Source of the DNA: Escherichia coli
GTDB taxonomy: Bacteria; Pseudomonadota; Gammaproteobacteria; Enterobacterales; Enterobacteriaceae
NCBI RefSeq assembly: GCF_003334815.1
Contig: NZ_QOWO01000081.1
DNA length: 3,658 bases
Reading direction: 5' to 3' (one strand)
Shown here piece by piece: positions 1,795 to 1,977 of this stretch. Below the pieces are notes generated by a model. The model did not search any database and had not been told where the DNA came from. It worked only from the letters and a program-made list of their open reading frames with translations. The position numbers and the translations under genes were made by a program. Position 1 is the stretch's first letter. Each line of letters starts with the position of its first letter.

Positions 1795-1850
1795 AGCGAA
1801 AACCCCGATAATCTTCTTCAACTTTGGCGAGTACAGAAAGATTACCGGGG
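1795..1850 (-). terminator. Rho-independent terminator of CopA (stem-loop II plus U-tract)
   Basis: Arms 1803-1815 and 1838-1850 are complementary apart from one A/C mismatch. The + strand run AAAAGCGAAAA immediately 5' of the stem gives a U-rich tract on the - strand transcript. Confidence 0.55.
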
Positions 1851-1885
1851 CCATCTAAAAACCGTATAGCCAACAATTCAGCTAT
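1795..1885 (-). ncRNA. copA: CopA antisense RNA (copy-number control), about 90 nt
   Basis: The - strand promoter (see 1892-1920) predicts a start near 1885. Two hairpins are present: stem-loop I around 1855-1880 (ATAGC/GCTAT arms) and a long stem-loop II at 1803-1850 (12 of 13 bp in the outer stem). On the - strand the second hairpin is followed by a U-rich tail (complement of 1795-1802). The + strand loop region contains TTTGGCG. Confidence 0.65.
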
Positions 1886-1891
1886 GCGGGG

Positions 1892-1920
1892 AGTATAGTT
1901 ATATGCCCGGAAAAGTTCAA
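1892..1920 (-). promoter_or_regulatory. Candidate CopA promoter
   Basis: Read on the - strand: TTGAAC (+ coordinates 1915-1920), 17-nt spacer, TATACT (+ coordinates 1892-1897). It overlaps the tap start codon on the opposite strand. Confidence 0.5.
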
Positions 1921-1977
1921 GACTTCTTTCTGTGCTCACTCCTTCTGCGCATTGTAAGTGCAGGATGGTGTGACTGA
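1903..1977 (+). CDS. tap: Tap (RepA6) leader peptide, 24 aa ([24 protein letters not shown]); its translation is required for repA1 translation
   Basis: Translated by hand from ATG 1903 to TGA 1975-1977. GGGGAG lies upstream. The stop overlaps the repA1 GTG start at 1970, the known tap-repA coupling arrangement. Missed by the ORF track because of its length. Confidence 0.8.

Follow-up and report, generated by a model that had tools for sequence, protein, structure and literature searches.

The window analysed here, a stretch of 3,658 nucleotides from an Escherichia coli contig, contains a complete IncFII (RepFIIA/RepFIC) basic replicon, in which positions 1787-1977 form the antisense-RNA cassette controlling copy number; we put the probability of this reading at about 95%. 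The antisense RNA CopA, its target CopT, the leader peptide gene tap, the initiator RepA, the regulator CopB and an R100-like origin were all found, in agreement with an earlier sequence-only reading of this DNA, made without database searches, which had claimed the full antisense copy-number circuit of IncFII replicons. The same reading had described the arrangement as the known one of R1 and R100, a confirmation and not a novelty, and this judgement was correct. The circuit is among the best-studied antisense controls, and the cassette is a known, ordinary system that brings nothing new to biology. A confirmed, working-looking IncFII-family replicon is nevertheless of use for plasmid typing and annotation. 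The following features were identified.

41-391: truncated DUF2726-type ORF
388-696: ORF of 102 aa
830-1124: hok/sok-like type I toxin-antitoxin module, upstream of copB
975-1124: Hok-like ORF, 49 aa
1408-1656, plus strand: copB (repA2), 82 aa, putative transcriptional repressor of the repA promoter
1681-1709, plus strand: putative promoter PrepA, read from the sequence (-35 box TTGCCT, 17-nt spacer, -10 box TAGATT)
1787-1885, minus strand: copA, antisense RNA of about 92-99 nt, from the Rfam family RF00042, folding and covariation
1885-1866, minus strand: CopA hairpin I, followed by a spacer
about 1852-1801, minus strand: CopA hairpin II
1797-1787, minus strand: U-rich 3' tail of CopA, UUUUCGCUUUU
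1794-1885, plus strand: CopT, exact complement of CopA and its target in the leader of the repA mRNA
1819-1836: variable positions in the upper stem of hairpin II, C1819 (R100 type) and AG1835-1836 (pMAR2 type)
1888-1893, plus strand: Shine-Dalgarno box of tap, GGGGAG, read from the sequence and common to all relatives
1892-1920, minus strand: candidate promoter PcopA, -35 box TTGAAC (1920-1915), 17-nt spacer, -10 box TATACT (1897-1892)
1903-1977, plus strand: tap (repA6), leader peptide ORF of 24 codons, from ATG at 1903 to TGA
1936-1973, plus strand: predicted mRNA hairpin over the repA start, pairing the Shine-Dalgarno box AGGA (1962-1965) and the GTG at 1970-1972
1970-2827, plus strand: repA (repA1), IncFII replication initiator of 285 aa with a GTG start
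2990-3150: oriR region with the DnaA box TTATCCACA at 3003-3011 and an A+T-rich stretch
3190-3384: RepA4-like ORF, 64 aa

The product of repA matches the families NF010313 (618.5 bits, cutoff 478) and TIGR03474 (581.8 bits, cutoff 446.9) over its full length. It aligns without gaps with RepA of R100, which has the same length, and 279 of the 285 residues are identical (98%); exactly the same protein is recorded on 166 contigs. An in-frame GTG at 1958 is listed for the repA ORF, upstream of the start at 1970 that is consistent with the family. CopB, encoded outside 1795-1977 but part of the same control circuit, passes the cutoff of NF010256 'replication regulatory protein RepA' (136 bits, cutoff 87). 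In the origin, where the DnaA box TTATCCACA was identified by reading the sequence, there is one difference from R100 in 3001-3100 and there are three in 3101-3200 (96-99% identity across 3001-3200). The claim that the replicon is intact thus holds at the level of sequence, as RepA is full-length and RepA, CopB and Tap all pass their NCBIfam cutoffs; that the replicon is also functional may reasonably be supposed.

One other possibility is that the cassette is part of a remnant replicon, silent or secondary, of a multi-replicon IncF plasmid, where it would serve as an incompatibility determinant only. RepFIC of plasmid F provides an example. It has the same order hok(srnB)-copB-copA-tap and is 86.5% identical to the window over 801-1979, with a different upper stem of hairpin II (15 differences in 1801-1900), but the similarity stops at 1979: the homologous tap of F is followed by no annotated repA, and instead by a short hypothetical ORF and then genes of a Tn3-family transposon. 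Many relatives of the window are likewise typed as multi-replicon IncFIA/FIB/FIC. On the other hand, repA of the window is intact, at full length and with no frameshift, copB is also intact, and the origin, the DnaA box and the CIS region align with those of the functional R100 replicon. We therefore consider a remnant of this kind very unlikely.

The complete IncFII replicon that we favour has the gene order and spacing of RepFIIA of R100 (NR1): repA2(copB), inc RNA (CopA), repA6/tap, repA1, ori. The suggested alignment with the R100 copA-tap region proved to be base for base, with eight differences in 1780-1980. Hairpin I, the loop II hexamer, PcopA, the tap Shine-Dalgarno box, the hairpin over the repA ribosome-binding site and the junction GUGACUGA are identical. 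R100 differs in having GA where the window has AG (1835-1836), at one position of the stem base (1798) and at four of the spacer between the hairpins. It also has a CopB that is 64% identical to that of the window, a divergent -35/operator region of PrepA, and no hok/sok-like module upstream of copB. The CopA/CopT/tap/repA system of R1, which is the experimentally dissected model, has the same architecture and presumably the same mechanism as the window; the comparison with R1 is an indirect one, made through R100 and through the Rfam CopA family, which is matched in full.

A scan of both strands with the Rfam models, the search that had been proposed for CopA, identified a full-length match to RF00042 on the minus strand (1885 to 1794, model positions 1-92 of 92). 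Its score of 101.9 bits is far above the gathering score of 60 (E 1.5e-19), and the alignment covers both hairpins I and II. Independently of Rfam, ViennaRNA folds the RNA into the identical two hairpins, with a minimum free energy of -32.3 kcal/mol (z = -3.6) that was equalled by none of 200 shuffled sequences. Thus both CopA hairpins are present, as had been claimed. The loop of hairpin II contains the hexamer CGCCAA in CopA and its counterpart UUGGCG in CopT (TTGGCG at 1824-1829 on the plus strand), and this hexamer is unchanged in all 11 aligned alleles.

A minus-strand CopA promoter had also been described, and the arrangement TTGAAC-17-TATACT, running from 1920 to 1892, was recovered as the sole sigma-70-like site in a promoter scan of 1250-2100, with a score of 9 out of 12 as a match of sequence. 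The start of transcription predicted from it, at about 1885, coincides with the first position of the RF00042 model. The candidate promoter lies within the start of tap and the tap ribosome-binding region. It is invariant in R100, pE275a_90 and p2010C, and the only difference in pMAR2 and ATCC 700415 is at 1899, in the spacer. Neither PrepA (8 out of 12, below the threshold) nor PcopB was called in the same scan of 1250-2100.

A CopA terminator had been reported in the sequence-only reading as well. Hairpin II has a G+C-rich base of its stem followed by the tail UUUUCGCUUUU (1797-1787), which aligns with the same tail of R100. However, no intrinsic terminator was called here by a simple terminator scan, since hairpin II has internal loops and exceeds the stem and loop limits of the scan. 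From the sequence and the homology with R100, transcription of CopA would probably terminate after hairpin II.

The tap ORF of 24 codons that had been reported lies at 1903-1977 and matches the NCBIfam model TIGR03475 'RepA leader peptide Tap' (60.6 bits, cutoff 35), which completes the three protein families of the replicon. It is annotated as tap in the relatives. The peptide is identical to annotated Tap of R100, and the genes differ by a single synonymous nucleotide (TCA/TCG). Between the 3' end of CopT and the tap ATG, the Shine-Dalgarno box of tap starts 3 nt past the former and stands 9 nt before the latter. At the distal end, the junction with repA has the sequence GUGACUGA, with the repA GTG at 1970-1972 and the tap TGA at 1975-1977. 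The statement that the tap stop overlaps the repA start is correct for the ORFs, which have 8 nt in common, like those of the annotated relatives, but not for the codons, which share no base: the stop begins 2 nt downstream of the GTG.

The predicted hairpin at 1936-1973 lies entirely within tap. Its energy is -18.4 kcal/mol (z -2.4), equalled or exceeded in stability by three of 200 shuffles, and it recurs in the longer fold of 1886-1990. The ribosome-binding site and the GTG of repA are thus predicted to be buried in a stem that translation of tap would open. This is the layout needed for tap-dependent, translationally coupled synthesis of RepA, and by analogy with R1 and R100, for which the coupling is established, it is likely to operate here.

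In R1, translation of RepA requires translation of tap, and CopA, a constitutive product of the opposite strand, pairs with CopT directly in front of the tap ribosome-binding site and blocks tap translation (PMC4344636, PMC5717011, PMC12779154). The following scheme may be proposed for the window on this model. Transcripts from PcopB and from PrepA, the latter repressed by CopB, would carry CopT, tap and repA, provided that both promoters are active. The Shine-Dalgarno box and the GTG of repA would be locked in the predicted hairpin, so that ribosomes would gain access to repA only through translation of tap, ending 2 nt past the GTG. PcopA, on the opposite strand, would drive constitutive synthesis of CopA, in amounts that follow gene dosage. 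The CopA loop II CGCCAA would kiss the CopT loop UUGGCG, and the complex would extend through the upper stems and end 3 nt before the tap Shine-Dalgarno box. The CopA-CopT complex would then block initiation at tap, and with it the synthesis of RepA and initiation at oriR, if inhibition proceeds as in R1. The upper stem of hairpin II would be the hypervariable region that determines specificity.

Another mode of control would be that of the IncI-alpha, IncB and IncL-M replicons, with an activating pseudoknot between the target loop and downstream sequence, instead of tap-repA coupling alone. The loop motif UUGGCG is presumably common to those systems, and there is a weak match of the window to the Rfam model PK-repZ (RF01087) at 1798-1851 on the plus strand. 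However, its 25.6 bits are well under the gathering score of 44, and the match is partial, as it covers model positions 4-60 of 150, that is, the hairpin alone; the match did not extend over the whole regulatory region to the pseudoknot partner, and this candidate was rejected. The published mechanism of R1 is again the inhibition of tap translation (PMC4344636, PMC5717011, PMC12779154). Control by a pseudoknot thus appears highly improbable, and the CopA-CopT-tap scheme is retained.

The hairpins of CopA are undisrupted on structural alignment. Across 11 alleles, a small sample of sequences related to one another, 95.4% of the cells at the hairpin positions are paired, as compared to at most 53.5% in slid controls. 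Four pairs show changes on both sides, and the covariation score exceeded that of all 500 shuffles. The hairpin structure has been kept by compensatory change, and the covariation supports both CopA hairpins. A protein product of the minus strand, for which the 65-aa ATG ORF running from 1854 to 1657 is a candidate and whose equivalents have protein annotations in several public records, can be dismissed almost with certainty, as the variation keeps base pairs, with compensatory changes at four of them, the 1-nt indels that exist in the upper stem of aligned CopA alleles would shift the reading frame, the structural match to Rfam is full-length, and CopA is well established as an RNA (PMC4344636). 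Two minus-strand ORFs overlap copA, of 65 aa (1657-1854) and of 180 aa (1673-2215), and their equivalents in public records are labelled 'hypothetical protein', 'replication protein RepA' or 'copA: plasmid copy control protein CopA'. Such protein labels are probably mis-annotations of the RNA gene.

At 64% identity to RepA2 of R100, CopB of the window is not of the R100 type. The copB stretch has no nucleotide differences from pE275a_90. In front of tap and repA, the -10 box of PrepA and the spacing are conserved with R100, and the -35/operator region diverges together with CopB. From the sequence and by homology, we infer that the tap-repA mRNA starts from PrepA under regulation by CopB, and PcopB is likewise assigned by homology. 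The segments 1271-1400 and 1711 onward are approximately 96-99% identical to R100, unlike the CopB/PrepA segment between them (1408-1710). As the flanks are near-identical while CopB and the operator diverge together, the repressor/operator cassette seems to have been replaced as a unit.

The plasmid pMAR2 of E. coli E2348/69 has the CopB type of the window (0-4 differences per 100 bp across copB) and likewise carries a hok-like gene upstream. It shares with the window AG1835-1836, the spacer between the hairpins and the tap peptide. It differs in T1819, which gives U-A at CopA pair 54-70 where the window has U·G, in A1798, and in its more divergent repA and origin. The replicon types of pMAR2 include IncFIC (MOB-suite, as given in PLSDB), whereas those of ATCC 700415 do not.

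The upper stem of hairpin II in the window is a rare allele. Over 1401-2000, a GA-to-AG change at 1835-1836 is all that separates the window from pE275a_90. AG1835-1836 also occurs in replicons of the pMAR2 type, but these carry T1819 instead of the C of the window and R100. Folded in the register of R100, CopA pairs 1819 with 1835 (pair 54-70), and this pair is C-G in four of the 11 alleles, U-A in four and U·G in the window only. The allele of the window is a wobble (U·G) intermediate of this covarying C-G/U-A pair. In the same register, position 1836 makes pair 53-72 a C/A mismatch, as it also is in pMAR2. In the ViennaRNA prediction for the window's hairpin II, the upper stem opens into a 4x4 internal loop at pairs 53-72/54-70. 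Given the mismatch, the wobble pair and the predicted loop, the binding kinetics of this CopA could differ from those of R1 and R100.

The exact allele was absent from PLSDB and the complete E. coli genomes (61-nt query), and from the GTDB species representatives and JGI metagenome contigs (38-nt query). It was found in two other assemblies, L008 and L009, both with the same RepA. Since these exact copies come from independent assemblies, the allele is neither unique nor a sequencing error; it is real, but rare.

In its sequence the allele resembles the product of recombination over a short patch between the R100/pE275a_90 and pMAR2 types, and it would be explained by a short conversion tract donated by a replicon of the pMAR2 type. 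One end of such a tract would lie within 1820-1834 and the other within 1837-1898, as pE275a_90 and pMAR2 differ nowhere else in this interval. One may speculate that this is a freshly recombined specificity variant which weakens cross-inhibition with CopA of the R100 and pMAR2 types, leading to partial compatibility, or which shifts the copy number through the opened upper stem; we regard this as rather doubtful, though worth mentioning. A search of the literature yielded no directly usable allele-specific incompatibility data for copA variants. Any importance of the rare allele would be confined to fine-scale incompatibility or copy number.

Ten contigs with an identical RepA (L008-L017, CopA region at about 2319-2419 of each locus) carry five different upper-stem alleles of hairpin II, with the loop hexamer, hairpin I, PcopA and tap almost invariant. 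The same contigs have at least four lengths of CopB (82, 84, 85 and 86 aa). The variation of CopB and of hairpin II beside one and the same RepA indicates that the control module and the initiator recombine independently. The concentration of the variation among such plasmids in the upper stem of hairpin II, around an invariant loop, and the rare intermediate both fit the established view of this segment as a determinant of incompatibility specificity that recombination reassorts.

The segment 1660-1990 matched at least 5000 plasmids in PLSDB, mainly from Escherichia, Klebsiella, Shigella and Salmonella, with annotated tap/repA. Related DNA occurs in 4203 of 5426 complete E. coli genomes, almost always on plasmids. 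The window as a whole is a mosaic: 1-1400 and 3000-3658 are near-identical to p2010C_5028-3, 1271-2000 is near-identical to pE275a_90, and repA is patchy between the two. A contig of the E. coli draft genome GCA_012330185.1 (L009 above) matches the window along its entire length at 99.6% identity, with no differences in 1230-2840, the cassette included. Of its 15 differences, 13 fall in two short patches, 1190-1229 and 3539-3648, with six between the 3' end of hok and copB and eight at the 3' end of the window; the remaining two lie at 2841 and 3539. This clustering suggests further short patches of recombination.

Upstream of copB, the hok/sok-like module gave an Rfam 'sok' match at 830-985 (83.8 bits). 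The match is 156 nt long and lies on the same strand as hok, and so it marks the leader of the hok mRNA rather than the short antisense Sok RNA. The Hok-like protein resembles SrnB of F. Further upstream, a terminator-like element (720-765), consisting of a G+C-rich inverted repeat with a T run behind it, comes directly after the 102-aa ORF; it gave spurious weak matches to microRNA families in Rfam.

No NCBIfam model matched the ORF at 3190-3384, and its equivalent in L009 is matched by the Pfam family PF27691 Rep_assoc_RepA4. Downstream of oriR, this RepA4-like ORF is flanked by inverted copies of GTTGTAACTAA at 3233-3243 (minus strand) and 3374-3384 (plus strand), of which none would be expected by chance. 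We take GTTGTAACTAA to be the core of the Tus-binding Ter sites, and the two copies presumably correspond to the replication-fork barriers TerR1 and TerR2 of R1 and R100.
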